64,000 nt of DNA from a virus (IMGVR_UViG_3300021400_001615:96884-160883), one strand, 5' to 3'. Counted from the first letter of the stretch, positions 1 to 64,000 are shown. Notes: a model not told the origin generated them from the letters alone. Numbers and translations are program-made.

Positions 1-1
1 T

Positions 2-3000
2 ATTTAGAGCGCGATGGCTCATGCAATATAGGTGTTTGCGGAAAACGCTCTTATGTCTGCGGTTAAACAAGTTAGACCGGATATCAATATTGGTGACGTT
101 TACAAAAAAACTTCATTAGATAATTATTTTAGAGGAGAGAGTCTATTGCCGGGTGGTAAGGCAACCACTACTGTTTCTACTGAACCAACTTCTTCGGAAC
201 ATACAGTCAAGGTTAAGACCGATGTAAATTTTGACGATGTTCCCAGTAAACTTCAAGCCGCTATTGATTCAGGTAGTCCATATAAAGTTACTGTATCTAC
301 GGATGCATCTTCTATGAAAGAAATTATCTAGGGCGGCATTGACGCTGGGTCTCCGTATCAATTAACATCTATCCAACTTGGGCCAGATATGTAGATTGGT
401 GAGCAAATACAACAGAACATAGAATCTTTCGATTATCTTGTTAAACCAGATTTGGACCCATCTTCTGATTTGGCTGGTAAGGTAAGACAAGCGTTGGCTA
501 GTGGCGAACCGTATAAGGTTATTTTGGAGGCCGATACTGGGAAGAATGGTTCTGGTGGTAAAACTGGTGAAAGTCCGATTTCATCGGGTAATGCACTTGG
601 TGATTAGGTGGCCGAAAGCATGGATCGTGCTGCCAATTCAGCGGAAAACGCATCTAAGAAAATTGAAGAAGCAAATCAACGCATGAATTCCTATCGTGAT
701 GCATGGTAGAGAGAATCTATTTCCAGGACTTTGTCTGGTAATTATGAAGGGTATGGCGAGGGATATTCTAATAGAACTACTCTCTCACAACTTAAAAATG
801 CGCATGAGGCTTATGACACTGCTGTTGCAAATGAATGGAATTGGGAAGATCAATATCAATGGGGAATAAAGTTTGTAAACCTATTTGAGCAATATCGCGA
901 CAATGGTGGAACACAAAAAAGCCTTGCTGCTCATGTTGAATTATATGAAAGGTTAAAACCACTTGCTGAGGGATATGCCGCCGAATTATAGAAAGTATTA
1001 AACTTTACGCCTGGCTCTACTACTGATCAAACTCAAAAACCGACACAACCATCGCAACAAACACAGCAAAGTCAATAGGGTACACCACGCCAACCAAATA
1101 CTGCCGCATATAGGCAAGAACAGGAAGAAGTTAGTCATGTCGTAGAGGCGGAAGCTGCCGCATTCGATAGACTTAAGGAGAAGCTTACGTCTGAAATTCC
1201 CGCTGCTGTTGACACAAAGACATAGGCGTTTAGATCTGAACAGGTTGAGGTTGAAAATTTGATAGACCTAGAAATATCTAAACTGTCTGAATTATCAACT
1301 GCTCTTCAAAACGTGTTCAAGAATAATGGTTCTAATCCAGATTTTGGCCAATTAAAAGAACTGTTTGAAACAATAAAAACGCTCGGCGAGGGCGAAATAA
1401 AACTGCCAAATTTTGATCAACTCTTTGAATCTGTTGGCAAACTTGCTTAGGTTTTTGAACAATTAAAAGGCGTTCAGCCTGGTTAGGATTTTGCAGATAC
1501 TTTAAATTCTTTAAAAGTAACAAAGACCAATATTGATAATCTCGTTAATTTAGCTGCCGCCATTGAAATGCTTGGCGAGGCTTTTAAGAAATTGAATACG
1601 GATTCTATGTCGAATGAGGGTCTTTCTTCTATTTAGACTTTATTAGATCAGGCCGATGCTCTTAAAGATCTTGCTACTATCCTAACTAGTGATCAAGAAA
1701 AAATTAAGAAGGCAATGGACGCAACGAGCGGATCTGGTGGCGGAAATAAACAATCAGAGTTGAAAGAGCTTCGCGATTATAATAAGGCTGTCATAGATTA
1801 TTATAATGCACAACAGAGATTACAGACAGGAAAAACGGAAACAAAATCTAGAGACGAGCTTATTTCTGCAAAAGCCTTCGATGTCATGACAGCATACGAA
1901 GAAAAAATGGCGGAATTGCAAAAGAAAGGTGTTCAATTGTCTGACGAACAAACATAGGCTTTGGAAAAAAGAAAACAAAAGCAAGAAGAGCTTAATAAAT
2001 TGGTTGAAGATTATAACCGCACAAGAAGCGAAAAGCAATCCAAGAGGATTAAGGACGAAGTAGATAAGGAAATGAAGGCTCTTGGTAATTAGATAGACAA
2101 TGCCGCAAGGAATACATAGGGCAAAAACGATGCCTACAAATAGCAAATAGGTGACATGAAAGATCAGTATGCCGATCTCGAGAAATTTATTTAGGGCATA
2201 GATTGGAATGGGAAAAGCGAACAGGAAGTAAACACATTAAATCAATAGCTGCAAGAAGTTATCACCCGAATTAATAAAATTAAAGACGGACTGGCACTTG
2301 CATCAAATAGTGGCGATTTTAAATCAGCTAACGCAAATATGGTTTCTAGATTGAATTCTCAAATGGCTGCATGGATGGATAAAAATACCGCCGCCTCTTC
2401 TTATTTTCCAGCAATAAAACAACTTCAAGAGCAGTTGAAAAGTGTTGGCAGTTCCGAGTAGTTCAATGGTATTGTTTAGGGATTTGAACGCATCAAGGCA
2501 GAAGCAATTTAGGCTGGTTTGGCCGGTAAAAGTTTTGCCGATACTTTAAAAGGTAGTTTCGGTAACCTTGCTAGGTATCTTATGTCTTTTGCCAGTTTCT
2601 ATAGAATAATCGGCACAATAAAACAAGCCGTCTCTGTTGTTAGAGAACTTGATACTGCTTTAACTGAAATGAGAAAAGTATCAGATGAGTCCTTAACGTC
2701 TTTGAAGAATTATCAAAAAGAGACTTTTAATATGGCGAACCAGGTTGGTACTACTTCTGCTCAGATTCAGAGGTCTACTGCTGACTGGTTGCGACTTGGT
2801 CGTTCTTTCGACAATGCAAAGGAAATGGCTACATTATCTACGAAATTGTTGAATGTGTCCGAATTTGAAAATATTCAAGATGCCACTGATTCTCTTGTTT
2901 CTGCTACGCAAGCATTTACTGAGGTTCAAGCACCCGCAATTGTTGATAAGCTTAATTTGATTGGTAATAACTTCGCTATTTCTACTGATGATCTTGCAAA

Positions 3001-6000
3001 AGGTCTTCAAAACGCTGGTGCTGTTCTTAAAACGCAAGGTAATGATCTTGATCAAACTCTCGCACTGTTGACTGCTGGTAACTTGATCGGTCAGGACATT
3101 TCTAAGGCAAGTGCTGGTGTTCGTACTATTGCATTAAGGATTGCTGGTACTGAGGAAGCTAAGGATGAAATAAAAGATCTTGGTGAGGATGTAGACGATT
3201 TTGTTGTGAGAACAAAGTCTAAGACTGATTCAATTATTAAGAATTATACAGCTGTTGCTTCCAATAACTATTAGGGCGTTTCGGTACTTGATGACAATGG
3301 CAATCTTCGTGATACATATGATATCTTGCTTGATATTTCGGAGATATATAAAGAGATACAGGAAGAAGATAAAAAAGTTGGTACAAATAGAGCTTAGGCT
3401 CTTGTAGAAACCTTAGCTGGTAAAAATAGATCAAATATTGTTGCAAGTATCTTGTAGAATGGCGATATATTAAAACAGGTTAGGGAGTCGTCTGCCAATG
3501 ATTACTTTGGATCGTCCGATCAAGAATTAAGTAAATACCTTGATTCTATTGATGGTAAAATGGCTAAGTTAAAAAATAAACTGCAAGAATTAGCTTATTA
3601 TACAATAAACTCTGATGGATTTAAAATATTACTTGATTTGGTTAATGGATTGATTACGGCAGTAAATACGCTTGCTAAATCATTGGGTGGATTAAATCTT
3701 GCTATAGGTGGTGTTGCCGGATTTTTCTTGAAAAAGAAAGGTTTTGCCGTTTTAGATTATGATAAACAAACAAGACAGTGGACTAATATTTTTCAGAAGA
3801 TTGGCGGTCGTTCCGGTAAAACGTTTAGCATGGCTTATACTGATGAAGTAAAAGAGCAATTCAGCAAGTTTGACCCGAATGACACTTTGAAAAGTGCAAT
3901 TGAAGTTAACGGTAATGTTGAGGGTCAACCAAAAGAATTACAGAATTATTATAATCAACTAAGTGAAACGCAAAAACAAACCATGTTGGTTAGTCAAGCT
4001 TAGGCTGAAATGCAAAAGCGTAGTACTCTTCTGGGAAATGCACTTGGCACTGCTTCTTCTTTCGGTAAGCAGTTTGTGTCTGTATTGAGCAGTATGGCAA
4101 TTGCCACCATTGTATCCGCCGGAATTAGTTTGCTTATAAAAACCATTTATAACCTCATCACTTATGAACAAAGAATGATAGATAAGGGTAAGGAAGCTCA
4201 GAATGTTATAAAAGGTATTAATGATAGCTATAATTCAAAGAAAACGTTTGTTGATGATAATTTATCCAGGTATTCCGAATTGAGGAAGGGTGTTTCTGTC
4301 ACTGAAGATGATGGCGTACAAAATAAATCTTTATCCAATGAAGAATTTAGCGAGTTCTTATCTTTGAATAAAGAAATGCAGGAGATGTTCCCGAGCTTAG
4401 TCACCGGTTTTGATGCTCAAGGAAACGCTATGTTGGATCTTTCCGCAGATGCCGACGATGCCAGTAAAAGTATGCAAACTCTTCTTGAACAAGAAAGGCA
4501 AATGGCCGATTTTAAAGTTGGCGAATAGCTTGGTGATGCGGTTAAAGGTTTTGCAATTAGGTATAAATAGTTATCAGATGATATTGATGAATAGGACCAA
4601 ACAATAGAAGCTGCTCAATCAATACAAGACATAATAAACGGGAAAACATAGGAGGGAATAGATCTTTCTAAATTTGGCTTTGACGATTATGGCAACTTAC
4701 ATTATGAATTTGACGTTAATGATGAAGCGGCCAAAGGTGTTGCACACATGATTGCTGATGCTTATAATGCTGCTGCCGGTGATCTTGGTGGAATAATAAA
4801 TGACGATTCTGAAATCACTGGTGTTTTATCTGGCGGGTTGTCTTACTTTGACGAGTCACAACTTGCAGATTTTAAAGATAACTTTCTTTCTAAGATAGCT
4901 GAGATGAAACTTGGCGATGTGCCAGAAGCTGTTCTTGATGCTATGTCTATTAAAAACATAGATTTGGCGGAATAGAAAGCAGACTGGAACGCTCTTGTTC
5001 CGTCGATTTTGTCTCAACTTAATTTTTACGAAGATTATCAAAAGCTTGGCGATTCAAAAATTGGCGAATAGTTGCAATAGATAATTGCGGACGATGTTTC
5101 TAATCTTGACCTTGATCATTTAGAAGAAATATATGGCAAGGGAGCATGGACTAAGTTTTAGGATAATACAAGAGGTTTTATAAGAGAGAATTTCCTCGAT
5201 CCAATTACCAAAACCTTAATTGAAGATGGTAAAATTTCTGATGAAAAGGTAAATTTATTAGATTAGCTTATAAACTTTGATGGTTCAGACTTAACAAATG
5301 AAGAATATAGAAGTCAGATAAATGATATCGTAAATCAATTTTCAAAAGATGCTGAAGTTAGAGAAGATATAAAGGTTCTTCTCGGATTTAAGTATTATGA
5401 CGAAGACGGAAATACTCATTGGGATATAACAAAACAAAGAGACAAACTGTATGAGGCTCTTGGCGGTTTTGTCGGCGATGATGCAACTACCGGAAAGAAA
5501 ACGCATCATGTAAGAACCGGTATGAATATAAGCTGGGATAATTTCAAGAAATTGGATTAGTCTGAATTGAGCGCTATTAGTTATGCCGAATCAAATATGG
5601 GTGTTGATCTTGAAACGATTGACGAATGGGATAAACTAAAAGAGGTTATTGCAGAAGCAAAAGAACAAATGGAGGAAGTGTCGGAAATTACCTCTGATGG
5701 TACTCTTGCCGATATATTTAAGGATGAAACATACCAAGAATAGGCGGAGCAGTATAAAAAACAGTTAACCACCATTAATGACGCTTTGGAGAAATATAAA
5801 ACTAATACAATGCTTACCAATGACGAACAAGCTCAATTAATGGAAGAATTGTAGATATCTGATATTTCACCCGAAAATCTTTAGAATATGGGAGCAGAAA
5901 CAATAAGTGGTTGGGTTGATCAGTTACATAAATTAGCCGATGAAATTGGTCTCACAAAAGATGAAATGCAAGGTCTTGAGGAGTATATTAAAAATATATA

Positions 6001-9000
6001 TCTTTCATATGATTAGTTAGATATAGCTAATGATTAGGCTACTGGTATTAATTATATATCAAATAGAATTGCTAGTAAGAGTGGTTCAATCCCAACACGG
6101 GTTGTAAGTGAAAAAACTTCAAACATTTATAATCAATTATCTAGTGAATTTGGTTAGGTTGATAATGAGATTGTTTATTATCTGTCGTTAAATCCGGAAT
6201 CGGCCACTTGGACTGCCGAGCAATGGATTTCACATTATAAAGATACAAAAATAGATTTTTAGCTTACAGCAAACGACAAGGATTTGCAAAGAGTAAATAA
6301 GCTTGTTGAAAACAACCAAAAAGATATTGCTTAGGCAGAGGCTAATAATTCATTAAAAGAAGCGAATGGCGGCGTATTAAACCCCGAAGATTATAATGTA
6401 ATTGTTGGTAAGCAGCAAGATAGCGCAAATGCATTGAGAAATCGTGCAACTGGTTTATATGAATAGTGGTAGAAATATAATCTAGAAAATCCATAGTATG
6501 ACGCTTCATACAGTCAGAAATTGTGGGATGATTATGTTGTTGCCGACACAGAAGCTGCCAAAGCAGAGGCTGATCTGGCTGAAAAGCAAAAACAACAACG
6601 CGAAAGTTCTGTGAACGAAATCAATAAGCGAATAGAGGATGCCCAGGCTTCCGCTTCAGTATTTTAGGCAAACATTAAAAAGGCGGATGCGAATGGTAGA
6701 CATGCATCTGATGAAACGTACAGTATTCTTTCTGGGTATTTAAAAAAACAAGCCGACGATCAAAGAGAGCTTTATAATGAATATAAGGGATTGGTTACAA
6801 CCAATCCAGAATTTGCAACTTATTGGAATCAAAAAGCTTCTGATGCTTTGAATGCGTCTGTTGACTTAGATGAAGAGAGTTATAATACAAGGATTGCGCC
6901 AATAACAAATTATATTGATGATTTAATAAATAAAGGTGTCGATGGCCACGAGGCATTATCCGATCTTTAGCGTGAGGCGACAGATTTGGAAAATGATCTT
7001 AACGAGGCTGATTCAAAGCATTTAAAAATCAGTGATAAGCTTTATAAAAATCTTATTAGCAATGGTGATAAACAGATACGTAATCTTGAGGAATAGAGAA
7101 AAAAACAGAGAGAGCTTCAATCTGAATTTGAGCATGGAACTTCCGATTGGCAAAAATATCAGCAGGAAATCGACAACATCAACTCTTCTATCGATTCTAT
7201 GAGGCAGAATCAAATGGGTTGGACTGAAACTATGAATTCCTTAGTTTCTACCAATGCACAGCAACTTGCTTCTACCATCTCTTCTGCTTTTAGTGAAATG
7301 TCATCCGGCACTGGATTGACAATTGACACAATGAATGAGTTAGAGCGTCAGTTTAGTGATCTTGCTGGTCATGATGTGTCTGATATCTTCTATCAGTCTG
7401 CCGATGGCATGAAGTTTAATGCGGATGCTGCCGAGGCATTGGTTGATGCTGAGTATGAACTGTAGTCTACTAATCTTTCCAAAACTCTTACGGAGCAAAA
7501 GGACATTATTAAACAATGCGGCGACGCTCAGGATGAAACTACCCAGAAAACCATTGCTGCCGCAAACGAACGTATTGTAGCCACTCAAAGAGAAATGGCA
7601 ATGCTCCAGGCATGGTATGATCAGCAAAAAGAGGCGTTTAGCGGTTTACAGAAATTCCAAACTGCGCAAAGCACTGCTAATGAGGGTGCCGACTATGAAA
7701 CTATGCAAGGATATCTCAAAACTCAGCAGGAAAATAGAACGAAAGGCTTGACTGGCACCGATGAGTTTAGGGCGTATACGGAATACTTTGATCGTTGGGG
7801 TCTTGATACTGTTGCTGCATGGGATAGAAACAAGGAAAAAGTTCAAAGATATTTAACAGAAGACTTTTCTGGTATGAGACATTTCTTTGATGATCTTGTG
7901 ACAAATGGGCTTGCTGAAAAAAATGGTGATGCTTACAACTTAGACATTGAAAATGTAAAAGATGCCGCTGAATAGATGGGTATGACCGTAGAATGGTTTA
8001 TGGATATGCTCGGTCGCGCTGAGGATTATGGTCTCAGAAATGACTGGATTGAATCTGAAATTGATGGAAGAGAAAAAATACAGGAAGCCATTCATCAACA
8101 AATAGAAGCACAAAAGGAACTTACAAAAGCTCAACAAGAGGGTGCGCCAGAAGAGGTAATACAGGATGCTCAGAATGTATACGAAGATAGAACCGCTCAC
8201 TTAAACAATCTCAGAGATGAAGTTGAAACGATAACCTCTCGCCCAACAGAAATGACAAAAGATGAATTTTTAACTAATGTTGCCACATTTAAAGCTATTA
8301 GAAATGACTGGAAACATGCCAAGACCGATGAGGAACGAGAAGCGTATGAACAGGAGCTTAATCGTCTTGCTGAGGAAACAGGTCTCGAGGTTGATTTGAA
8401 ATTTAAGATTGATAAGGATTCTTATAACGAATAGCTTGAAAAATACGGTGTAATGACAAATGATTAGATACCACAGGCTAGTGATTTAGGAATTGGTATA
8501 GAACGTGCGCCAGAATATGAACAACTCTCTCAATCTTTGTATGATCTGAATCAAAATGCAGACAGTGATATTTAGGCCGCAATTAATACACTTGGTAATT
8601 ATACTGCTGAACAATTGAAATCTCTCGATCTTATTAGTGGCGGATATGACGATACGTTTGAGGGTTCCATTGAAGCTGAAAAGGCAATGGATGCATTAAA
8701 TTAGGCACTTGGTAATACAGGTGAAAATGCAGATTTGCTGGCTTATGCGTTGGAAGCGCTTGGATTAACATAGCAGAAAGTTACAGAGGAAACCACAACT
8801 GAAGTTAGGAAGCCAAAGAAAATTGAGCCGGAAGAAAAATTGGACTTACCTACCAATTTAATTGATCTTGCTTTTAATAACGTCAAAGAAAAGGTAACAG
8901 AAAAGGGTTAGGGACTTTTTGAGACTGCGAAGACCTGGGCGCAAGAAGCAAACACAAAAATCTAGGAACGAGCTGTTGCACAAAGAGAGATCGACCAGAA

Positions 9001-12000
9001 ACCAACCGTAGATAGTATTAATAATATGGCTGATACCGTTGGTAATGCGATTGAGTCTGGATTAGAAAATCTCGGAACAACATTTGAGTCTGTTGGTGAA
9101 TCTATTGTCGGCGCAATTGAAGTCATAACAAATCCGGATTCTACGAACGGTAAAACGACTAAAACATCATAGTCTTAGATTTAGAAACCCGGGATTTCCG
9201 CTGCGTAGACTCAGCAAAATAAACTTGCTAATGATGAAAATGCTAGTTTCAGTTCTGGAAATACTGGTGTTACCGTTACTGCTACTGTTGTTCCCGAAGA
9301 TACTTCACAGCTTCAAGGTTTGGAAGCGACGGCAAATGCAACCGTAGAAAATGCAAGTGTCCAAGATGGTGTTAAGGTTGAAGTTGAGGGTACAGCAAAT
9401 GTTACAGAAGCGGAAAATAATATTGTTAAACCGATGCAAATACAAGCGACCGCCAATGCCAATGTGGAAGTCGCCGATGGTGGGATGAAACAATCTGTTT
9501 CTGTTGACACAAATCAGGTAAGCGAAGCAAGCAGTGCCGTATCTGATCTTAGCTCTTAGGTAAGTAATATACCAGAGGGAAAAGCTCATGTAGACGCTGA
9601 AACATCTTCTGCAATGAGTGCGTTGCAATCTGTTGAAGATAAATTGTATGAAGTTGGTAATACGCCATCCAATCCGAGTGTAAATATCACAGTAAATGGT
9701 AAAACGGAATTAGATAGTGTAAAAAATACGATTGATAACTTAAAAGATAAAACCATAACGATTACCACTAAGCATGTAAGCACCGGTAGTTCTGGTAGTG
9801 GCAGCGGTCTTGGTGGTATTAACAACGAAGGGTTTGCATTTGCTGGTGGCACAGAGAAAGATCGTGTTATCCCAACGACGCATGCTGGTGAAACTCTTGT
9901 TGGTGAAGAGGGCTATGAGATCCATGTGGATCGTGATGGTCGTCAATGGAATATTGTTGGCGAGAATGGTCCAGAGTTCCGCACTGATATCGCTCCTGGT
10001 GATATTGTATTTAATCATGAATAGAGCAAAAAGCTTCTAAAGAATGGTTATACAACAAGTCGTGGTAAAGCACTTGCTAGTGGCAATGTAGAATGGCATG
10101 GTCCAGCATATGCGGACGGAGATGGCAAAAATGATGCACCCGTTGTAAAAGCAAGTTTTGCGCCCACACAGCCATACGTTGCTCCCAAAACATTAACAAA
10201 AACTATAAGTGAAGGCACTAGCTCTATTAAAGACCAGACCAAATCAAGCGATGATAACACAAAAGCCGTTCAGGACAACACTTCCAAACTCGACAAATTC
10301 CAACAATGGCTCGACTCTCTTAAGGATTGGATTGAAGTACGAATTGCCCGTCTCACATATAAGATGGAAATGGCAATTACTAAATCGGAAAATCTTGGTG
10401 GTAAAGGAAACAAAACAGAAACTGTTAATGGCGTGAAAAAGAAAAGGACGCAGAATTATGCCGATAGAAATGATTATATAAATGAGGCAATGTCTATTAA
10501 TGATTAGCTTCGTAAAGATAATAAGAGTGGAGCAAAGGAATACGGTAAATATGCTGCCAAAGTTGCAAGAAAGGCGCAAAAGGCTGGTTTAATTACAAAG
10601 GCTGAGAGAAAAGATTTGGTGCCAAAGATTCAAGATGGAGCGATAAGTATCGAAGATTTTAGCCGTGCTATAAGCAAAAAGAAAAATAAAAATGGTAGCG
10701 ATTCTAAAAAGACTGAAAATACAATTAAAACATTTATTGATGCATATACTGAGTGGTATGAGAAAATGCTCGATTGTAAAAAAGCACAAGAAGAATGTAT
10801 TGCCAAGCAGAAAGAATTGCAGCAAACAAAGCTTGACAATATCACTGAACAATTTGAGGGATTAATAGAGGTGGCCACTTCATATCAAAATGTTTCTGAT
10901 TCTATGATCCACATGCTTACCGCACAAGGCAGGACTGCTGTTAATGATGAAAAATTCCAGAAGCAATATGATAATTAGATTACTGAAGAACAAAACATAT
11001 CTTCTTATTTAAAAATGGAACTCGACGCATATGACGCAGAGTTGGTAAATGCGAAGAAAGTTTTTGGTGAGAACAGTAATGAATATCGTGCTGCCATGGC
11101 ACAAAGAAACGAAATAGAACAATCTTATAATGAAAGCATTGCAAAGATTGCCGAACTTCGTAAAGCAAAAGAAGAAATGGTATTTAAATCTATTAGTAAT
11201 ACTATTGAACGAATTAAGGGGATATCTTCACTTATTTCTGCCAGAATGTCTTTGAGCCAGAAACGTGGTAATAAGAATAATGAATATGACAAAGACAGTG
11301 AGGATCCGAATAGATACATCAAGATGAACGAGGGTCTTATGGCTCGTAATAATGATATGATCCTGATGTGGAATAAGCAACGTGAAGAAGCGGCGAGATG
11401 GATAGGTAAAAACAAACATCTGGAAGGTAGCGAAGAATATCAGGATTATTATAATCGTTATATCGAAGCCGAAGAGGAAATCCTCGGCCTTATGGAAAAC
11501 CAAGAAGATATCAAAAAGAATATCCGCGATTATCGTTGGAAATCCTTCAATGATCTTCAATAGGAAGTAAAGAATACCATTACAGAAATAGATAATCTGC
11601 GTAGCACTATGAATGAAGCTGAATTCTTTGATGCAGAGTTTGGCATTAATATTACTGATAAAGGCTATGCAAATATTGCTCTTCTGCGTGATGGTATGAT
11701 TGAAGCCGAGAAACAGGTAGCTGATTATCAAAAGGCGTTGGAAAAACTCGAAGAAGATTATGATAATGGTAATATAAGTGCCGACGAGTATAGGCAAGGT
11801 GTGGAAGAATATAGTAGTGCTATAAAAGAGGGTTCTGATGATATCAGGCAATATGAAGACGCTCTTGTTTCTATGTATAAGACGCAAATTCAAAATGAAA
11901 ATGATTTACTTCAAAAAAATATCACAGCCAGAAAAAATGCTTTGACGGCTAAAAAAGCGTGTTTTTAAGAATGCGCTTATTCATTAAATTGCTGAAATAC

Positions 12001-53971: not shown

Positions 53972-54073
53972 ACGCTTTAAATACTCTTATCAAATTATAA
54001 ATGTATCATTTTATAAATTCATAACAATAGTTAAAATGCAGTGTATACTAGGATTTCTCCTTTCAATTTTTTG

Positions 54074-54262
54074 GTCTCACACCGGCGAAATTGCGTCTCA
54101 CAGAAAAGGCTACGGGAATTCATACACACGTAAAATGCACACAAAATGGGGTTTTGCACACGACTTTTTCTAGGTTTTATGCGGGTTTGTCGGGGCGGAC
54201 ACCTCCGATCACCCCCCATAAATACTGGGTTTGTCGTGCCATACACACAATTTATGCACACG
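54074..54262. repeat. Putative attP region with arm-type direct repeats
   Basis: CATACACAC-N5-ATGCACAC at 54121-54142 and 54240-54261, TTGCACACG at 54154, and GGGTTTGTCG at 54183 and 54227. Lies immediately 3' of the integrase. Confidence 0.5.
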
Positions 54263-54273: not shown

Positions 54274-55575
54274 TTAAACCAGAGGTGTGGATATCATCCT
54301 CATCTCTGCTTCTGACATGTATTTCATTTTCGTATCAAGGCTCTGGATATCGTAAGTATAATGCTCGTCATTAACCCTCGGTGTATTCCCAATAAGGTCT
54401 CCTGCTTCGGTCGCTGATGCGCCATTATATCTTAAATAGGAATTAAAAGTACGTCTGATTGCGTGTATACTTTTATGACTGTCAAACTGCAACTGGTCAC
54501 ATTTGTGGTTCATGTACGCCGTCAGATTTTTGCATCTGAGTTTGTTGTCTTTGAAGGATAAGACGAAATCTTCGACAGAACCAAATCTTCCCTGGAGATG
54601 CTGCATCTTCCGCAGGAATTCCCGAATATGATCGGTAATGGGAACATTGCGAATTTTGCCGGTCTTGGTCTTGTGCTGATAATACTTTTTGTCTATGACA
54701 TCGTATTTCTCAGATTCGCATATCCTTATGTAATTGTCATGTACATGTCGCCATCTTAGTCCAGCAATTTCGCCAACCCGCATTCCGGTAAGGATAGCAA
54801 GTTGAACGCCATATGGATAGATGTACTTCTCGTTCCTGTCAATATCCAGCTTGATTTGTGTGATGAGTCTGGCGAGATCTTCCTGCGAAAGCGTTCTTTC
54901 CTCCGGTGTTTTTTCATCGGTGTTATAGAACTTCACGAATTTCTTCTTATCTACATACAAACATGGATTTTGAGATGCTTCCATCTTGCGATCCATGACA
55001 GCGTTGTAAAATACTCCGCTGATGCATGCATATAGAGAATCAGAACTTCGCCGCTTAAGGTTGAACTTCTTAATAGAGCTAATCATGAACACTTCAATAT
55101 CACGGGATGTGATCTCGAACATGTCACGATCCTTAAATGGATTATCACCAAAGAACCTTGTCCAATCTGTCTCGTAACGGCGAATACTATTATTAGTCTT
55201 GCCATACTCCTTTTGCGCTTCCATCCATCGGTCATGCGCTTTAGAGAATGTAAAGACATCCGGCGGCTTTTGTTCGAAGCCAACCGTGTAGTATTCTACG
55301 ATCAGATCCTCAATTTCCTGTCTGGTCTTCCGGCTCCTTTGGATTAGTTTTCCAGTTTCCTCATCTAAAAATCTTGTATACCACCTTCCATTCTTTTCAT
55401 TACAGGTAGGTTTATAGGGATGATCTTTTAAGATCTTTGCTCTTCTATTCATCTCTATTTGTTCCTGTATACACTGCAAGGCAAGTATACCATCTTCGCC
55501 AAATTTATTCAATATTTCTGCTTGAAATTCTGGGGTTACCACAGCGGTGACCCCATTTTTTACGTCATTCGTCAT
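54274..55575 (-). CDS. int: Tyrosine recombinase/integrase
   Basis: TGMRVGE (R), KTKTG (K), HAIRR (HxxR) and GNT...HYTY (Y). Start codon uncertain. Confidence 0.9.
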   Translation of the reverse strand: MTNDVKNGVTAVVTPEFQAEILNKFGEDGILALQCIQEQIEMNRRAKILKDHPYKPTCNEKNGRWYTRFLDEETGKLIQRSRKTRQEIEDLIVEYYTVGFEQKPPDVFTFSKAHDRWMEAQKEYGKTNNSIRRYETDWTRFFGDNPFKDRDMFEITSRDIEVFMISSIKKFNLKRRSSDSLYACISGVFYNAVMDRKMEASQNPCLYVDKKKFVKFYNTDEKTPEERTLSQEDLARLITQIKLDIDRNEKYIYPYGVQLAILTGMRVGEIAGLRWRHVHDNYIRICESEKYDVIDKKYYQHKTKTGKIRNVPITDHIREFLRKMQHLQGRFGSVEDFVLSFKDNKLRCKNLTAYMNHKCDQLQFDSHKSIHAIRRTFNSYLRYNGASATEAGDLIGNTPRVNDEHYTYDIQSLDTKMKYMSEAEMRMISTPLV

Positions 55576-55583
55576 TTAATTAA

Positions 55584-55814
55584 TTAGCCGATCATGAACT
55601 TCAGCAGACGGGTGACATCATCCTGGTTGTATGCAATCAGTTCCATCTCAGGGATGTCGTGATCACCGCTGAAGATCTTGGCAAGTGCTACATACTGGGT
55701 CAGCTTACTCTTGAGATTAAGGCGAAAGTCATCACATACGAGTTCGACCTTCCCGGTACAGCTATCAATTACATTAAACAGTCCATCAATATCACTAATA
55801 TTATTAATTTTCAT
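55584..55814 (-). CDS. Small HPr-fold-like protein resembling a Lachnospiraceae family
   Basis: MKINNISDIDGLFNVIDSCTGKVELV...RLNLKSKLTQY, where LNLKS parallels the HPr VxAKS region. Confidence 0.55.
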   Translation of the reverse strand: MKINNISDIDGLFNVIDSCTGKVELVCDDFRLNLKSKLTQYVALAKIFSGDHDIPEMELIAYNQDDVTRLLKFMIG

Positions 55815-55902
55815 ATTTACAATCCTCTTCTTTCCTATATAATTATATTGTCACAATAAATAGCTCCCCTATGAATTGCGACAAATCTTACTCCTTTGGG
55901 TG

Positions 55903-56088
55903 TCAAACTGATGACACCCATTTTTCATCAATATCTTTATCTGGGTCTTCGAAATCAAAACCATCACCATAATATTCTTCGCTACACCATCCGCAGTCAA
56001 AACATTCATAGTACCAACGCCGACCTTGAACATTGTCTAGACATATTAGGTGCAACTTGTTTGCACAATATGGACAAACATCCATCAC
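55903..56088 (-). CDS. Small Zn-ribbon protein
   Basis: CPYC...CFDC. Coupled to dut. Confidence 0.5.
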   Translation of the reverse strand: MMDVCPYCANKLHLICLDNVQGRRWYYECFDCGWCSEEYYGDGFDFEDPDKDIDEKWVSSV

Positions 56089-56525
56089 TTTCCTCCTGTG
56101 CTACCGAATCCACCGGCACCACGGCTCGTCGTATTTAATCTATCAACTTCATTGAATTCAATTTCTAGATAAGGAATTACAACAAGCTGGGCAATTCTCT
56201 CATTTGGAGTAATAAAACGAACGTTGTCACTATCATTATGTAATGCAACAATGATCTCGCCACGATAGTCCTGATCGACCACGCCGCAACAATTCGCCGG
56301 TCTAAGTCCTTCTTTTGTGGCTAAACCACTTCTGGCAAATATTGCACCGAAATATCCATTGGGGATTTCCATGGCAATGCCAGTGCCAATTTTTGCGGTT
56401 TCGTGCGGTTTAATCTCTACAAAATCTTCACTGATGTTAGCGTACAGATCATATCCGGCAGCTTCATTGCTTCCTCTGAGCGGAATCTTTGCATCATTAT
56501 TAAGTCTAGTAAAATTAACTTTCAT
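56085..56525 (-). CDS. dut: Trimeric dUTPase
   Basis: Motifs AAGYDL, ARSGLA, GVVDQDYRGEI, ERIAQL and RGAGGFGSTG. Confidence 0.97.
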   Translation of the reverse strand: MKVNFTRLNNDAKIPLRGSNEAAGYDLYANISEDFVEIKPHETAKIGTGIAMEIPNGYFGAIFARSGLATKEGLRPANCCGVVDQDYRGEIIVALHNDSDNVRFITPNERIAQLVVIPYLEIEFNEVDRLNTTSRGAGGFGSTGGK

Positions 56526-56766
56526 AATATTCCTCCAACATTTAATTATCTAATTCTTCATTATTAATTTTCACCTTATCTTCACACGGGATACACTGTC
56601 CGTAGTAATATTGTTTATCCCTAGCGTCACAGTGTACCCTAACTCTGGCCTTATCTGTATCATCAATCATTGCGTATTGACAGTTACTGCAATCTTGTCC
56701 TGCTATTATCATTCCCATTCTTCGTCCTCATTGTCTTCATTATCATCACCATAACATCCGTATTCT

Positions 56767-56949
56767 TCATTCTCGCTCATCGTAGAACCAGTTATCCTCC
56801 ACATATGCTATAAATTGAACAATAAATACAATGAAGCTTAATGGAAGCATTGCTACCACCGCAAAACCGGAATGACCAGTAACGTCATACAAAGCCATAA
56901 ATACGCAAATGACTAGCCAGAAAAATAGCAGAAAAAATAAATACATCAT
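56767..56949 (-). CDS. Small two-TM membrane protein
   Basis: Hydrophobic 60-aa ORF with GAGGTG RBS. Confidence 0.5.
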   Translation of the reverse strand: MMYLFFLLFFWLVICVFMALYDVTGHSGFAVVAMLPLSFIVFIVQFIAYVEDNWFYDERE

Positions 56950-57025
56950 CTCATAATGTCACCTCTATAAATCCCAGGGGAATTATTACATCCCCCGGGA
57001 GTAAATAATCCGTTCACATGCTACT

Positions 57026-59566
57026 TCATTCACACTTGCTCCATCCACAGTCGGGGCATTGCTGACACTGACCGGTGAAGATGATTTCACCTCCACATTC
57101 TGGACAACGTGCTTTATTTTTAATCTTTGGAAGTTTGATTGTGGAGTTTTCGTGTTTAACCTCAACTACAATCTCTGGCGAGGTTACATACTCTTCATCT
57201 TCGTCAAACAACTCTTCCTGCATCTCTTTATACATATCAAGCAATGCATTACCGATTGCTGACGGACAGCTTGATCCTTTGGAACAATCATGTGTCCTAG
57301 CATTTCTAGCTGCATAAGAGGGGCAAACATACACGCTCTTTAACTGATCGACAATTGAATAGATATCAATGCCACCACGAGCGCAGAGAGATGTAAGTCT
57401 TGAGATACCCTGATAATTAACACTGCAACCACCCTGGCTGCCCTTATCAAGCCACATATGGATCAGATCGCCAGTGTCCGGATCAAAATCCGCTCTTACC
57501 CAGAGCGTCCCGCATCCGGTTGTCAGCTTTCTAGTTTTGCCAACGACATTTTCATCAGCTACAATAATCATTCCACGTTCAAGCTTTTCGGGAACTTCTT
57601 TGGTTTCGTTCTTATCATTAAGCGTTAAGACTCCGGCTCGTTTACAACCATCTCTAAAAATGGTTACACCTTTCAGACCAGCTTCCCACGCTTTCATGTA
57701 CAGATCTTCTACTTGTTCGACCGTAAAATCATTAGGGACGTTTACGGTAGAACTGATGCTTGCGTCAATATGTTTCTGCCAGATTGCTTGCATTTTAATT
57801 CTTTCTTTGTAATCAAGCGTTTGTGCTGTTACAAAGAATGACGGAAGGTCTTTATCATCTGAGATATTATTTTCTTCCATGTATTTCTTAACAATCGGAG
57901 TGTAAACTTTGTAGTATTCATCGTGGCCATGTAAGGACTCTGTCTTTCTGGTATAGTAATTAGCAAAGATAGGCTCAATGCCACCAGACACTCCAATCAT
58001 TGTTGACAATGTTCCGGTTGGTGCAATTGTAAGCAACTGTGAATTGGCTAATCCACATGACACATCAGTATCGCCAACATGCTCACTGAAATATGCGGAT
58101 TGCATGACCGCTTCTGGATGATACTTGGGATAATGACCGATCACTTTTGCAAGTTCAGCCGATGTTTTAATAGCTTGATAAGCCATTTTCTGTCCAATCA
58201 TATCACACAGATGAATAGACTCTTCGCTACCATAACGGATATTCATCTTAATTAGCATGTCGGCAAGACCCAAAATTCCGCAGCCAACCTGTCGCCAATC
58301 ACGAACAGATTCTCTCTGTTCTTTAAGAGGATGAAGCGGTAATCCCTCATCTAATACTTCGTTTAATGCTTTGATTGCAATGTCTACGGTGTTCGCAAAA
58401 TCATCGAAATCAAATGTCTTGTCTTTAGTTACAAATTCTGAAAGATTGATGGAGCCGAGTAAACACGACCCACCTGGCGGAAGTGGTTCTTCGGCCATTA
58501 ATGGACTATATCTTCATCTTCAGCATTACCTGTTAAGAGGTTCGCACTTCGAAGTGTAACCACATCACTCCTACTCTACTTAGTATTATTAACCTTTCGA
58601 TAGTCTCTTGACCTTCCGATATACGGCTTGGCACAGGATTCTTGGCATCCCCTGTTAGCACATCTTTTAGCTACCATTTCCTGTAGTTACTATTCGTAAG
58701 ATGTACACCCACTGGTTAGGTGGTTCACGAACGATTATTTCATAATATTTCTATTATGCCCTGCACCGAATTCGACAGGGATTCACACCGCCATATTCAA
58801 ACTCTGGATCGCAACTAAGTAAATTCCAGTTATTAATTCTGTCCCACATGAGCATTCCTGGTTCCGCATAGTCCCAATTGGATACGCAAATCTTGTGGAA
58901 TAGATCATAAGCATCAATCGTTTTTCTAATTGTTTCACCGGTTTCGACTCTGGTAAAATTCAATTCAAATGGCTCTCTATTTTTAACAGCAGCCATAAAT
59001 CTGTCAGTAATACGGATGCTGATGTTAGCTTTAGTAACACGATCCGTGTTCTGCTTAATCCCAATAAAGTCTTCAATATCTGGATGATCACATGGAATTG
59101 AGATCATCAATGCGCCCCGGCGGCCGTTCTGCCCGATCAATCCAGTTACCATTGAATACAAATCCATGAAGCTTACAGACCCAGATGTTTCCTTGGCAGC
59201 GTTATGAATTTTTGCACCCTTGGGAGCAAGCTTTCCAATGTCAATTCCACAGCCACCACCATAGCTGTATGTTCTAGCTAATTTCTTAGCACAATCAAAG
59301 ATTTCTTCGATGGAATCGTTGGGAGCGGATATGACATAGCAATTGGATAGACTTATCTTTCTACCATCCTTTTCTGTACCCCTATTGGCGAGAATTCTTC
59401 CGCCAAACAAGAACTTCTTATCTAAGATTTGTTTCTTTAATATTTCGTTTTTATTTGATACTCTATCCAACCACTCATCAAACGTTTCATTATTATACTG
59501 GTATTTTCTGTGCCATATGTCTGCACCCAACTGATTATCTTTCCCCAGCCATTCTTCAACAGTCAT
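57026..59566 (-). CDS. nrdJ: Class II (B12-dependent) ribonucleotide reductase, exons 59566..58775 and 58495..57026, 753 aa
   Basis: SNCYV, GGGCG, RRGALM, GVNPC|AEEPL...SCLLGSINL, TIAPTGTLS...SGGIEP, ISSTVN and KGVTIFRDG motifs. C-terminal Cys-rich/Zn-ribbon tail. Confidence 0.92.
58496..58774 (-). mobile_element. ORF-less group I intron (279 nt) in nrdJ
   Basis: On the minus strand: P1 CCCUGU/GCAGGG (U.G at 58775), P10 UUCGGU/GCCGAA, P3 GUUCGU/GCGAAC, R UCAAGAGACUA and S AAGAUAUAGUCC. Terminal G is at 58496. Splicing restores NPC-AEEPL. Confidence 0.9.
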
Positions 59567-59567
59567 A

Positions 59568-60008
59568 TCATGGTCTCCTTCCGTATGTTCTCACCATATC
59601 ATCTTCAATAGCATTAGCCTTTCTCACATGCTCCTTGCAAAGATCATAAACAATATTAGAAATCTCCTGAAGTACTTTGTATGTTTTATCATATGCCTTT
59701 GCCATCTTCATATGATTTTTATACTCCAGTTTTGCGGAGCATACCTGGATGCCGACATTCTCATCAAATTTGTCGTTATCATCACAGTATGCAGTTGCAC
59801 TGATCTTATTGGAATTCATACCAAATATATACTGTATTTCACTAATTTTATTAACACCATAAACACATGCTTCGATCAAGGTTTTATACATGGGTTTAAT
59901 CCCACGCTTCATATCCTTCTTAACCCATTTCAGCGGCATAGAACCTTCAACACGCTTCGCCTCCGGAATAACCTTGAAACTTTTGTTTTTAATATTTACT
60001 TTCTTCAT
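59568..60008 (-). CDS. Hypothetical phage protein
   Basis: 146-aa ORF in the operon with an ATAYCDDNDKFDENVG motif. Confidence 0.6.
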   Translation of the reverse strand: MKKVNIKNKSFKVIPEAKRVEGSMPLKWVKKDMKRGIKPMYKTLIEACVYGVNKISEIQYIFGMNSNKISATAYCDDNDKFDENVGIQVCSAKLEYKNHMKMAKAYDKTYKVLQEISNIVYDLCKEHVRKANAIEDDMVRTYGRRP

Positions 60009-60268
60009 CCGTAAAATCCCTCCGTTTTATAAGCACCAACTTCTTTAACTCTCTCATAAAAATAATCGTACTCTTCATCATTAATAGTAACAGGAGCAAG
60101 CACAACTGTCCTGCCACACATCTCCATAACTCCAAGTACGGAACAACCATCCACACAAACACGCCCACAAATGACATTTACATCAAATTTCAAACTCTCG
60201 CAAATTGCGCAAAGTTTGTTAACCTTATCCAATGTTAAATCAAGTCTGATCTCCATCGGTTTCATCAT
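60005..60268 (-). CDS. HPr-family protein (Ser46 motif, no His15)
   Basis: FDVNVICGRVCVDGCSVLGVMEM resembles HPr VDAKSILGVMSL. The protein contains no His. Confidence 0.6.
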   Translation of the reverse strand: MMKPMEIRLDLTLDKVNKLCAICESLKFDVNVICGRVCVDGCSVLGVMEMCGRTVVLAPVTINDEEYDYFYERVKEVGAYKTEGFYG

Positions 60269-60419
60269 CCTTTCTACTAATTACAAATGCGCTGCAAAAT
60301 GAACTAGGATCGAAATTAAGAGAATTCTCAATGATCATCTGGATCTTTTTCACAGCGTCTTTTTTACTATCACCGGCAATGCTAACTCTGCCGGTAAACC
60401 CAATATCATAAAACATACA

Positions 60420-61879
60420 TCATTCCACCTTTTCTAGCACATAGATGCTATTAACAGTTTCAATATGATAGCGATTATCACGATCTATCCATATAGACAG
60501 AACCTCACTGGTGTCAAGATATTCATACGGCGATTCAGTTTCAATGAAATCGCAATGAACCATGTCAAACTGTTTAATATCTTCAATCTTTTTCATTGTG
60601 ACTATTGATCCGGTGATACCTAAATATTTTGAAGCTGTCACATCTGTGCCACGAACACCTTTACGACCACTATGAGTAATACTAACAATCTTGTATTTCA
60701 TTTCTCATCCCTCGCATACTCTTTCATATACTCAAGCATCTTATCTTCTTCCGGGAAAAACCCATCAATGCCTTTTTTGGCCATTAACCATCCGAAGAAG
60801 TTCATCGTAAATTGCCCGTATCTCCAGTCAGGGAAAGTCTCCATATGAATTTTTCTGACCTCATCATAAAATTTATATAACCTCATCGGATCTCTCATTT
60901 GTTATACCTCTCACTCTCAATAACACTTGCCATTCGGCAATTGTTTACATCATCCCAAAAGATATCATTCATCTTGCACTTATATGCAAACCTACCGCCG
61001 AAAAATACATAGGCAATATCCATACCATGCGGAATAAATACATATGTCCTTTCAGTAGTCAATGCAGATCCTCCGATCCCACCAAACCCCAGGGCGGTAC
61101 TTGCCCAGGTCTGGTCGAAATCATACAGGATGCCATTATCGTAAACCGGTACATGGTAAAATTCCCGCTCCAGATATTCAGTGATATCCAACAACTGCCT
61201 AGCAATCTTAACTAATCTCATTTAATTAGTCCTTTCTTTGTAATCAATACACTGTCCGCATTTTGGACAATATTCAAAATCATAGATCAACGGTGTGAAA
61301 CAATAAGGGCATTTTTTATATTCCTCACCCCATGCTTGAGGCACCGGCTTTTTCCCAATAATCTTACTCAAATCATCAGCATCAAAATAGACACCCTCGC
61401 CATTGGGATTATATAATTCCGCATATGTGAAATTGCCGTCTGTATTAAACTCCATATATATTTGCGCCTTATCCTTAAGATTCAGACGCATAAATTTATC
61501 CTCATAGAGTTTATCCAACTGTTCTTTCGTTAATTCAATTTTCACGATTAACTCCTTATCCAATGTGAACTTCGCCCGGTTTCATGTCATAGTCAACGAG
61601 TACCCTGGCACCATTCCAAACATAGGAATTATTATTAGTCGTCTTTCTGGAATATTCCTTGCCATCAACCGTTATTTTTAGTGGCATAATATCAGCAGAA
61701 ATAGTCATGCTGGCATTAGAAATAGTAAGGTTGGAATTCGTAAATCCATCCTTCTTTAATCTATCAAAGACATCATCACTGGCGATGATGTATGGATATT
61801 CGCCATGCTGATCATGATAGGCAAGCACACATCTTTTCAATTTATCAAAATCAAGTTTATACGCATTCATAGCTTTCAC
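60420..61879 (-). other. Cluster of five small hypothetical genes (60420-60701, 60698-60898, 60895-61221, 61222-61563, 61556-61879)
   Basis: Abutting or overlapping ORFs ending TGA/TAA. One has PDWRYGQF; one has a C-terminal CPYC/CPKC. Confidence 0.6.
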
Positions 61880-61916
61880 CTCATTTCTTTACTATCAATT
61901 CCTCTCACCAGAGAAT

Positions 61917-61945
61917 ACTATATCACAAATCAATAATTAAGTCTA
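61917..61945 (-). promoter_or_regulatory. SigA-type promoter
   Basis: Minus strand TAGACT-17 nt-TATAGT with an extended TG, upstream of the gene starting at 61879. Confidence 0.55.
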
Positions 61946-61978
61946 GTGCTTTAATTATTTTTTTCTTATCCTAAAAAT

Positions 61979-62132
61979 GCGGTAGTCGCTTCATCCTCAG
62001 CCAAACTGTAGGAGCCAACCCTGACCCACCGCTTAGATGGTTGGTTTAGTTATGGCACTCGCAGGAAAAACGCCTTTCTCATGTCTCCGCAAAGACCGAG
62101 CTTTCACCGTCAGTCCGCAGACTTCGGATGGC
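61979..62132. ncRNA. Candidate structured non-coding RNA (family unassigned)
   Basis: GC-enriched intergenic segment with several stems and a crossing pairing (see findings). Confidence 0.3.
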
Positions 62133-62141
62133 ATTACATCT

Positions 62142-62492
62142 TTAAATGTATTTAACCTTAACTTTCCTCATCCTATTTTTCTTCTCACAAATCTCAATGG
62201 CCTTGTTGAGTTCTTCGGTACTATATCTGAACACGGTCTTATCAAGTTTATCACTACTAAACGCCCAGCCGTTATCCATGCGCCATCCCCAGATATTAGT
62301 AAACCAGACCTCAACAACTTCACATTGCCTGATCTTATATTTACCAAATAGACCTTGATAGATCACATAACAATATCTGTCAAGTCCACCACCAGGGAAC
62401 GGAACAAATGGAGAATCGAAGTCTTTATTAAATTCTTTTATTTCAGTACCGTCATAATCAACGGCTGCATCTTTGTGTGCTGTAAATAACAT
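62142..62492 (-). CDS. Hypothetical protein
   Basis: 116-aa ORF co-oriented with its neighbours. Confidence 0.55.
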   Translation of the reverse strand: MLFTAHKDAAVDYDGTEIKEFNKDFDSPFVPFPGGGLDRYCYVIYQGLFGKYKIRQCEVVEVWFTNIWGWRMDNGWAFSSDKLDKTVFRYSTEELNKAIEICEKKNRMRKVKVKYI

Positions 62493-62687
62493 ATTATTAA
62501 TTCCTTTTATGTTTTATTTTTCATATCCATGATCAGTAAGCATATCATCAATACTATTCAGTAAAATGTCATATTCTCCTGGGGATAACTTATTCAATGC
62601 ATCATCCAATAACTCATCAAAAATGTTTTCAAAATCAAACCGTGTATTGACAAAACTTGTATCAATCATAATGCCCCTCCTATGAAA

Positions 62688-62861
62688 TTATTTCGGAAGT
62701 CTTCCATCGTAGCTATATCCATTGTTTCTACGCAATAAAGCTATTGCCGCTGCGGTGTCCCAGTTACAGAATCGTAGAGCTTTAATTATCTCCATCACAC
62801 TATATCCTGTATTTTGTCTTATTCGTTTTACAATCTCTTCTTGCTCATTAATAGATAACAT
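62688..62861 (-). CDS. 57-aa protein resembling the EF-Ts N-terminal (UBA-like) domain
   Basis: GGAGG RBS. IVKRIRQNTGYSVMEIIKALRFCNWDTAAAIALLRR resembles EF-Ts VKELRERTGAGMMDCKKAL...GD.EKAIELLR. Confidence 0.55.
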   Translation of the reverse strand: MLSINEQEEIVKRIRQNTGYSVMEIIKALRFCNWDTAAAIALLRRNNGYSYDGRLPK

Positions 62862-63224
62862 CGCATACCTCCAAATAAATGTGTGTTTTAAGTTAATCTC
62901 ATTGGAAAAATGATGTGATAAAGAAAATTACTTTTGTCTGCGTACAATCTTACCAGATACCAGTTCCCGAAAAGATGTTTTACAACAAAACCGTGTTCAA
63001 TTAGCCACTTAACCATATTGCCATTTCCTCAAATAAAATCAGTTTTCTATTTGTTTATCCAGTAGCTGAAAATATTCTTCTTCATGAATACATTTTTTCT
63101 CATCGCAACAATACTCATTCCAAATATCTTCAATGTAGCTTTTCTCACAACTGAGACAAGGTTCCTCTGGGAAATAGTCTTCGTCATATATTATTCTCAT
63201 ACTTCTCCTCTTCAAATACTTATT

Positions 63225-63611
63225 TCATCGGTTCTTATCTTCAAAGAAACTTTTTGTATCAAACCATTTATCTTCAACAATGTTTCCTATAATTTTAATG
63301 GTATCGCCCCAACCTAATGTCGCCACTCTAATATATTTATTAGCCATCTGATTATATTTACTAACGCCGACAGTATCCATAATTCGCATTATATATTCTG
63401 TACCAGGCTCATAACCTTTAAATTCTTTGGCTCCAAGATAACCACTTCCGATTTTAAAGCCACCATATACACAGCCCCATCCATCACCTTCAAGAACTAT
63501 TTCTGCACATAGACATCCATGATCGGCCATCGAAAGATCTACTCCAGTGATTTTGGCATTCTCAATTTTATAACCAGCTTGTTCAAGTAATTCTTTATTC
63601 CATTTTTTCAT
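63225..63611 (-). CDS. Conserved hypothetical phage protein
   Basis: 128-aa ORF with IENAKIT...DHGCL...GWGCVYGG. Confidence 0.6.
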   Translation of the reverse strand: MKKWNKELLEQAGYKIENAKITGVDLSMADHGCLCAEIVLEGDGWGCVYGGFKIGSGYLGAKEFKGYEPGTEYIMRIMDTVGVSKYNQMANKYIRVATLGWGDTIKIIGNIVEDKWFDTKSFFEDKNR

Positions 63612-63787
63612 TGTTTATTCCTATCAACTAATTTCTTCCAAATAATTTGTTATCATTTCATTGTCACAGTATCCGCCTGGATCAAACCAGTAGGCAAATT
63701 CTTTTAGGAACTCTACTAAATCATCATAAGAACTTTCCGCAATCGCCTTTATTAATTTTTCTAAATTAGTCATATCAAACCTCAATT

Positions 63788-63988
63788 TCATTTTTCTGAA
63801 TTACAAATAATCTCCACAGCCTTATCCGTATAATTCGGTGTTGTTACTGTAGGTGATGCCCACCAATAGTAAGAAGTTGATTTACGTCCGTCATCCCACA
63901 CTTCGTTTAATAATTTTTCCAACTCATCTTTGGTAAATTCAATTTTGCCATTACTGTTTGTTGTAAATACTTTAATCATATTCCTCAT
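63788..63988 (-). CDS. Hypothetical protein
   Basis: 66-aa ORF with GAGGAGG RBS. Confidence 0.55.
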   Translation of the reverse strand: MRNMIKVFTTNSNGKIEFTKDELEKLLNEVWDDGRKSTSYYWWASPTVTTPNYTDKAVEIICNSEK

Positions 63989-64000
63989 ACCTCCTCAAAA

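Follow-up and report, generated by a model that had tools for sequence, protein, structure and literature searches.

In phages that read the stop codon TAG as glutamine (genetic code 15), the recoding of late and lysis genes has already been proposed both as a timing device and as a lock on lysogeny, and recoded prophages with a TAG-free integrase have been described (Borges et al., bioRxiv 10.1101/2021.08.26.457843). For crAss-like phages, code 15 has been proved at the level of peptides (PMC9523058), and Theta ribozymes have been considered as something that might trigger the code switch (PMC10879173). Here we examine a viral stretch of 64,000 nucleotides (nt), IMGVR_UViG_3300021400_001615:96884-160883 (the window), in which late genes use TAG as a glutamine codon and early genes, including an integrase gene, read alike in codes 11 and 15, together with the rest of the phage genome, which holds a gene for a suppressor tRNA with anticodon CUA, tRNA(CUA), split by a group I intron. 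A first-pass annotation of the window had envisaged a switch, whereby a lysogen in a code-11 host could express its early genes while tail and lysis genes stayed locked until a phage suppressor tRNA or a release-factor switch was on. That model is not new, because Borges et al. proposed it earlier; the interpretation is a sound application of their published hypothesis, known in kind, and the added value here is the hidden suppressor tRNA.

The window (positions 1-64,000) is the last, right-hand 64 kb of a single 160,883-bp contig, and positions called "genome" are those on the whole contig. The contig is a complete phage genome: its first 108 bp are found again at its end, and IMG/VR lists it as 100% complete, in the class with direct terminal repeats. 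When 20 kb of the window was compared by megablast with 50,697 phage records (INPHARED), no match came up, and as far as these comparisons indicate the lineage is undescribed in the collections searched.

Two translational regimes and TAG as glutamine

The late block, which reads in code 15, occupies window 1-54221 on the plus strand, holds tail, virion, homing-endonuclease and lysis genes, and reaches back beyond the start of the window as far as the terminase gene (genome 71.3 kb). The early block, which reads the same in codes 11 and 15, lies on the minus strand at window 54274-64000 and runs on past the genome ends as far as about genome 59 kb. GC skew changes sign at about 54 kb of the window, where the long plus-strand block meets the minus-strand block.

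Read in code 11, the plus strand of the late region yields 108 open reading frames (ORFs) of at least 60 amino acids (aa), 61 of which end in TAG. With TAG read as glutamine, window 1-54221 resolves into 35 contiguous ORFs that contain 164 in-frame TAGs in 17,762 codons, amounting to about 22% of their TAG, CAA and CAG codons taken together, and all 35 end in TAA (25) or TGA (10). These counts bear out the first-pass annotation, which had described late frames that break at TAG and genes that end in TAA or TGA. A comparison of coding density pointed the same way: crude ORF coverage in genome bins between 80 and 150 kb rose from 0.68-0.91 in code 11 to 0.86-0.99 with TAG as glutamine, and the frames opened less well when TGA or TAA was read as sense instead. 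TAA and TGA remain stops in the late genes.

Recoding is patchy within the late block. The tape measure gene carries 16.8 TAGs per 1,000 codons, and two large proteins at 24-33 kb carry fewer than 2 per 1,000. These two (plus strand, window 24336-33042; 1,754 aa and 1,067 aa, the latter with a DUF6273 match) have 3 and 2 TAGs, or 1.7-1.9 per 1,000 codons, which is 5-10 times fewer than their neighbours, and this scarcity may reflect recent acquisition or a different expression timing.

The minus-strand block of the window presents a different picture. Its 17 ORFs of at least 60 aa (window 54274-63988) stop at TAA (6) or TGA (11), never at TAG, and have no internal TAG; the only in-frame TAG of the block, near 56561, lies upstream of the dUTPase ATG. 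The earlier statement that this block uses TAG neither as sense nor as stop, and is translated identically in both codes, is confirmed by these ORFs. Genome-wide, the 133 early minus-strand ORFs stop at TAA (70), TGA (58) or TAG (5), a depletion of TAG stops (P ~8e-6) relative to the 16% expected from the share of TAG among out-of-frame stop triplets. Minus-strand ORFs that end in TAG are absent from the window and a small minority genome-wide (5/133), and the label "TAG-neutral" is apt for the early genes, though not absolute outside the window.

In-frame TAG density was 9.3 per 1,000 codons across 58 late genes (genome 71.3-151 kb) and 1.5 per 1,000 across 87 early minus-strand genes, a difference that is highly significant even with all 23 doubtful early TAGs included (Fisher P = 4e-16). 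The early in-frame TAGs fall mostly in artificial N-terminal extensions that arise from TAG-blind ORF calling, and where an early ORF has both an in-frame TAG and a family match, the match begins downstream of the TAG. The split into two regimes noted in the first-pass annotation is real, but its boundary is not a strand switch: nine plus-strand genes between genome 59.5 and 71.3 kb, among them antirepressor-like, HNH and PhoH genes, belong to the TAG-free class, with 1 TAG in 3,202 codons, and sense TAG sets in exactly at the terminase gene. The regimes are divided by gene class, not by strand. A complete relative of 185 kb, G004, has the same early/late TAG split and the same architecture.

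We read the identity of the TAG residue from homologs of four TAG-bearing proteins, aligned with X placed at the TAG sites. The TAG column held Gln in 113 of 119 homologs at the endolysin motif GYGLCxWT (aa 93), in 97 of 99 at a conserved column of the terminase and in 54 of 73 at the endonuclease motif VYxYDL (aa 285), and Gln was the commonest residue (55% of homologs) at EFDGIxHF; the motif CPxC had too few aligned homologs for scoring. The three scorable motifs singled out in the first-pass annotation as glutamine positions (GYGLC*WT, VY*YDL and EFDGI*HF) all kept that assignment. Nor were the TAG columns random as a set: pooled over the 14 that could be scored, Gln had log-odds of +15.8 and was the sole residue with a positive value, His being next at -7.1.

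Since some database proteins had themselves been predicted with TAG as glutamine, we also made the comparison at the level of codons, in 37 related viral loci. The codons facing this phage's TAGs were CAA (56), CAG (39) and TAG (23), and the relatives' own in-frame TAGs faced Gln in this phage 61 times and TAG 23 times. Across the relatives' aligned genes, only 4 in-frame TAA or TGA codons were seen, versus 138 in-frame TAGs. Because relatives carry CAA, CAG or TAG at the TAG sites and almost never an in-frame TAA or TGA, sequencing errors and gene decay are excluded as the source of the TAGs. On these alignments, the reading of TAG as glutamine in the late genes is well supported.

A suppressor tRNA gene split by a group I intron

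Neither ARAGORN at default settings, nor Rfam at gathering and permissive thresholds, nor a direct scan of the genome for CUA anticodon stem-loops found a CUA tRNA, and relaxed ARAGORN settings produced noise only. The tRNAs that standard searches of the genome did return were four: Thr, Gln-UUG, Met and Leu-UAA. The tRNA-Gln(UUG), which recurs in relatives, was entertained as a near-cognate reader of TAG and dropped once a split tRNA(CUA) had been found. A tRNA cluster on the minus strand at L002:9400-10100 (genome 29.2-29.9 kb) contains degenerate tRNA-like elements with GTTCGAATC T-arm motifs, as well as a sub-threshold YrlA (Y RNA-like) match at L002:9547-9622 (33 bits, E 7e-5); these pieces contain no CUA and were set aside as a source of the suppressor.

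The split tRNA(CUA) gene lies on the plus strand at genome 87246-87550 (L005:8046-8350, which fixes the conversion of other L005 coordinates), inside the late block and 9.3 kb before the window, with its two halves flanking the intron. The Rfam group I intron model RF00028 matches genome 87278-87469 (L005:8078-8269; 50.5 bits, E 7e-12), and the intron itself is 212 nt long, has no ORF and occupies genome 87282-87493 (L005:8082-8293), between anticodon bases U35 and A36. The last letters of the 5' exon are ...CCGGU-CUCU, closing on U; the last base of the intron is G, and the 3' exon resumes with AAA-ACCGU, which leads into a variable arm of 23 nt and then into the T-arm, acceptor strand and G73. 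An intron guide, UUUGGA, can pair with two exon stretches, UCU (P1, a U.G falling at the splice site) and AAA (P10).

When the exons are joined in silico, ARAGORN recognizes a 93-nt tRNA(CUA). The same tRNA occurs without a break in six further viral contigs, among them the two whose terminases are most similar, and across the junction these read ...GGTCTCT and then AAAACCGT..., as predicted. The phage suppressor tRNA that the first-pass annotation had anticipated is present, visible only once a group I intron has been removed in silico.

A sister phage has the same intron-split arrangement: the relative G001 (202 kb, complete) carries a homologous 231-nt intron at the same U35/A36 site in a different tRNA(CUA). 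A strict search for the splice-site pattern found only G001, and the exact junction of intron and 3' exon had no further match among viral contigs. We also observed in G001 a class II tRNA (C1:11.5-11.9 kb) interrupted by an intron of about 310 nt. Its two halves, once joined, give the loop CU-UAA-AA, which places the intron at the site that is classic for tRNA-Leu(UAA), and the core blocks of this intron resemble those of the suppressor intron. A 20-nt core of the variable arm of the suppressor, containing AAGGAGG, recurs unchanged in seven viral contigs despite differences among them in the acceptor and T arms; this motif was not found in the relatives G001, G002, G003 and G005.

The genome is rich in introns, with four Rfam group I matches and two sub-threshold ones (in the tape measure and ribonucleotide reductase genes). 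Because sister phages have an intact tRNA gene and the genome is intron-rich, we take the intron to be, most probably, a mobile passenger instead of a switch built for the purpose, and the intron-less orthologs indicate that it moved recently. Three of the introns that score above threshold lie in the head-gene region of the late block (L005:954-1232, 1357-1619 and 5680-6021; genome 80.2-85.2 kb), near an ORF for an HNH endonuclease (L005:6199-7479). The genome also has a hepatitis delta virus (HDV)-like ribozyme on the minus strand in the early block (RF02682, 46.4 bits; L003:17982-18052, genome 57582-57652), which lies between a stop codon and the ATG of the next gene and has no tRNA adjoining it.

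Neither a release factor nor a glutaminyl-tRNA synthetase (GlnRS) accompanies the tRNA: a search of the genome found no RF-1 domain (PF00472) and no tRNA-synt_1c domain (PF00749; GlnRS/GluRS-type). In published cases of code change, RF2 and synthetase genes are accessory and not universal. Because the phage encodes no synthetase, host enzymes must charge its tRNA(CUA), and the comparative evidence suggests that they would do so with Gln.

Integrase, lysogeny and competing explanations

The integrase gene named in the first-pass annotation encodes a tyrosine integrase of 433 aa (minus strand, window 54274-55575; PF00589, E 1.8e-13; phrog_1, E 8e-43) and faces the end of the lysis module in convergent orientation. 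It is free of TAG, as had been claimed, ends in TAA and, like the early genes around it, reads alike in codes 11 and 15. A phmmer search of the protein against PDB sequences gave no match; G004 has a TAG-free homolog at the same junction between blocks.

We consider it quite probable that the late genes of this phage are written in code 15 and its early genes are code-neutral, that TAG is decoded by the phage's own intron-split tRNA(CUA) after charging by the host, and that the intron is a passenger. An unmodified host apparatus, presumably one using the standard code, would translate the early genes, including the integrase, and late transcripts would bear TAG codons that act as stops for that host. 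The tRNA(CUA) would have to be transcribed, spliced (presumably by the intron itself), given its CCA end and charged by a host enzyme, and would then compete with RF1. The CUA anticodon would be present only in the spliced RNA, and full-length late proteins, those for lysis among them, would be made only after tRNA(CUA) had accumulated.

Several observations weigh against this interpretation. The first concern the lock itself, which would be uneven: 6 of the 35 late ORFs in the window, all small, lack TAG, and the two large proteins at window 24336-33042 have very few, while outside the window five early ORFs may end in TAG. Others concern the suppressor. The RF00028 score of 50.5 is only just above the gathering score of 50, a long, class II-like variable arm of 23 nt is unusual for tRNA-Gln, and the absence of the intron from the tRNA(CUA) of the closest relatives argues against a regulatory role. 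The tRNA gene sits within the late block, 14 kb past the terminase gene, so that TAG-bearing genes precede it; directly upstream is a terminator-like hairpin (L005:8000-8029), and we found there no convincing promoter and nothing that marks a separately controlled switch. This arrangement lends no support to a discrete switch.

Lysogeny raises further difficulties. A second tyrosine recombinase, Xer-like (SAM-like plus Phage_integrase domains, 350 aa), is encoded on the plus strand at genome 88609-89661 (L005:9409-10461), in the late block just downstream of tRNA(CUA) and ahead of a RusA-like resolvase gene. Codon 25 of its gene is TAG, no start codon follows between there and the domain, and this TAG is probably read as sense; since this recombinase carries TAG, not every recombinase is code-neutral. 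In G004 the homolog likewise bears TAG and adjoins an intact tRNA(CUA), so that the tRNA-to-recombinase neighbourhood is conserved. A terminase search of species-representative genomes found only two phage-sized contigs of 125-130 kb, binned into metagenome-assembled genomes (MAGs), and among 401 genomes of the order of one such MAG we found, beyond the same MAG contig, only homologs of at most 46% identity and no integrated relative. One of the MAG contigs is labelled Absconditabacterales, which we did not take as evidence of the host; because TGA is a normal stop throughout the phage, a TGA-recoded host is not indicated.

Could the two regimes be a mere by-product of selection? Because early genes would have to be translated before a suppressor tRNA is made, selection might strip TAG from them, while late genes, expressed when the tRNA is always at hand, would drift among CAA, CAG and TAG, with no control beyond transcription. 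The place of the tRNA gene within the late block, where nothing hints at separate control, would fit this account, as would a TAG density that ranges widely among late genes, some of which have none, and the free exchange of TAG, CAA and CAG at the same sites between relatives. However, early genes are depleted in TAG stops as well as in sense TAG, which points to adaptation to a cell that reads TAG through. Preferential recoding of lysis genes has moreover been found statistically in two other lineages (Borges et al., bioRxiv 10.1101/2021.08.26.457843), and here the endolysin and the glycerophosphodiester phosphodiesterase (GDPD) both carry TAG, one of them at an invariant Gln. We regard a pure by-product as possible but rather doubtful.

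A stronger form of control, in which the splicing rate of the tRNA(CUA) intron sets the timing of the TAG-bearing tail, lysis and recombinase proteins, seems to us unlikely and is offered as speculation. Were it true, splicing could hang on the supply of guanosine or Mg2+ or on a phage or host factor, which would add a metabolic or temporal checkpoint to the decision between lysis and lysogeny, and intron-hidden suppressors could explain some of the TAG-recoded phages, roughly 60% of the total, that lack a detected suppressor tRNA.

A host that itself decodes TAG as Gln, or terminates weakly with RF1, would involve neither conflict nor switch, and would suit a phage in which no release-factor gene was found. 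In such a host, however, the near-complete avoidance of sense TAG in early genes would be pointless, both the phage and its relatives encode a tRNA(CUA) themselves, and the published hosts of TAG-recoded phages are standard-code organisms (Borges et al., bioRxiv 10.1101/2021.08.26.457843), all of which makes this explanation very improbable.

The idea that TAG stands for another residue (Ser, Leu or Tyr), or that the TAGs are assembly errors or marks of decayed genes, could appeal to the class II-like variable arm and to one terminase TAG in a column that is Pro in distant homologs, but it is hardly credible when Gln alone has positive pooled log-odds, that Pro column is CAA or CAG in 35 of 37 close relatives, relatives retain the TAG codon itself 23 times, no frame is interrupted by TAA or TGA, and the weak 1-72 pair, G2-C71, G10, U35 and G73 of the split tRNA fit the identity elements of E. 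coli tRNA-Gln.

Other genes of the window and comparison with described systems

The plus strand of the window opens with the first part of the tape measure gene (window 2-11968; PhageMin_Tail PF10145, E 7.8e-18), which starts 2.3 kb before the window. Its whole frame has 4,753 aa and 92 TAGs, 67 of them in the window part, to which the density given above refers. It is followed by a probable group I intron (window 11969-13729, splice sites approximate), marked by two sub-threshold RF00028 halves (11979-12173, model positions 49-158, and 13650-13725, model positions 160-251; each E ~1e-3) that flank a homing-endonuclease ORF (window 12038-13672; 544 aa, 4 TAGs) with the CPxC and EFDGIxHF motifs and matches to CapR and, weakly, DUF559. 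Beyond it, window 13730-15379 (549 aa, 9 TAGs, no Pfam match) is a putative second exon of the tape measure, with the same TAG density (16.4 per 1,000) and Gln-codon profile as the first. If both parts join across the intron (window 2-15379 plus the 2.3 kb upstream), the tape measure would have about 5,300 aa, and by the rule that relates tape measure length to tail length this would predict an exceptionally long tail.

Next come a distal tail protein (DUF6558; window 15447-16421; PF20195, E 7.9e-16; 2 TAGs) and a tail-associated protein of 2,487 aa with no Pfam match (window 16421-23884; 21 TAGs), which forms a single frame only with TAG as glutamine. Two ORFs further along, at window 43295-45187 and 44907-47000, both match PHROGs annotated as "virion structural protein" and overlap by 281 nt in different frames, which may reflect a frameshift, another interruption or an artefact of ORF calling. 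The late block closes with a free-standing GIY-YIG/NUMOD homing endonuclease (window 49964-50962; phrog_314, E 7e-22; 5 TAGs, including the VYxYDL site), the endolysin (window 51402-53021; Phage_lysozyme2, CHAP and SPOR with Pfam E 3e-26, 1e-11 and 7.5e-7; 3 TAGs, including the GYGLCxWT site), the GDPD (window 53018-53881; PF03009, E 2.3e-26; 2 TAGs) and an ORF of 117 aa (window 53868-54221; 1 TAG), all on the plus strand.

On the minus strand, the early block includes the dUTPase (window 56085-56525; PF00692, E 5e-30) and a ribonucleotide reductase (barrel plus TSCPD) in two ORFs, window 58754-59566 and 57026-58498, which cover positions 1-200 and 225-522 of PF02867. They are split by a probable group I intron (window 58482-58784, minus strand), a full-length RF00028 match below threshold (23 bits, E 1e-3).

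Set beside the phages of Borges et al. (crAss-like, Lak, Garnet and Topaz), this phage is alike in that the sense TAGs are found mainly in structural and lysis genes, the early genes are compatible with the standard code, a suppressor tRNA is encoded by the phage, and a recoded homing endonuclease lies within a group I intron (here a probable one). Unlike them, it represents what appears to be a separate lineage, of 160 kb, with a tape measure of about 5,000 aa and no INPHARED match; it has no RF2 gene, its suppressor tRNA is intron-split, and its early genes avoid TAG as a stop also. It shares a TAG-free integrase with the Garnet and Topaz prophages (Borges et al., Fig. 5), for which the lysogeny-lock hypothesis was proposed. 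Those are 24-kb prophages integrated in Prevotella and Oscillospiraceae genomes, whereas the present genome is one of 160 kb, neither an integrated copy nor an att site was found for it, and its second recombinase carries TAG.

The gut phage phAss-1, of the proposed Phassvirus (136 kb; PMC10607447), likewise has TAG as Gln in terminase, tape measure and other virion genes, and likewise a tRNA-Sup(CTA) with no dedicated synthetase; its predicted host is of the Firmicutes type. Compared by description, it differs in having 2-3 intact suppressor tRNA genes among 36 tRNAs, and the words "integrase" and "intron" each have 0 occurrences in the paper that describes it.

Taken as a clean, complete genome with two translational regimes and an integrase on the code-neutral side, the present phage offers a test bed for the published recoding-lock idea. 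It also shows why surveys of recoded phages miss suppressor tRNAs, namely that an anticodon split by an intron is invisible to ARAGORN and Rfam, and pipelines that use code 11 or call such genomes suppressor-less will misread them. The split itself has a familiar counterpart in the group I intron of bacterial and plastid tRNA-Leu(UAA), which is small and ORF-less and lies in the anticodon loop, between U34 and A35, with short P1/P10. The intron described here is also an ORF-less group I intron in an anticodon loop with short P1/P10, but it interrupts a CUA amber suppressor and is inserted one base further on, at U35/A36. A different ribozyme, the Theta (minimal HDV-like) ribozyme, is also coupled to the maturation of tRNA-Sup in code-15 phages (PMC10879173); those ribozymes cleave the tRNA 3' trailer, whereas in this phage a group I intron interrupts the anticodon.

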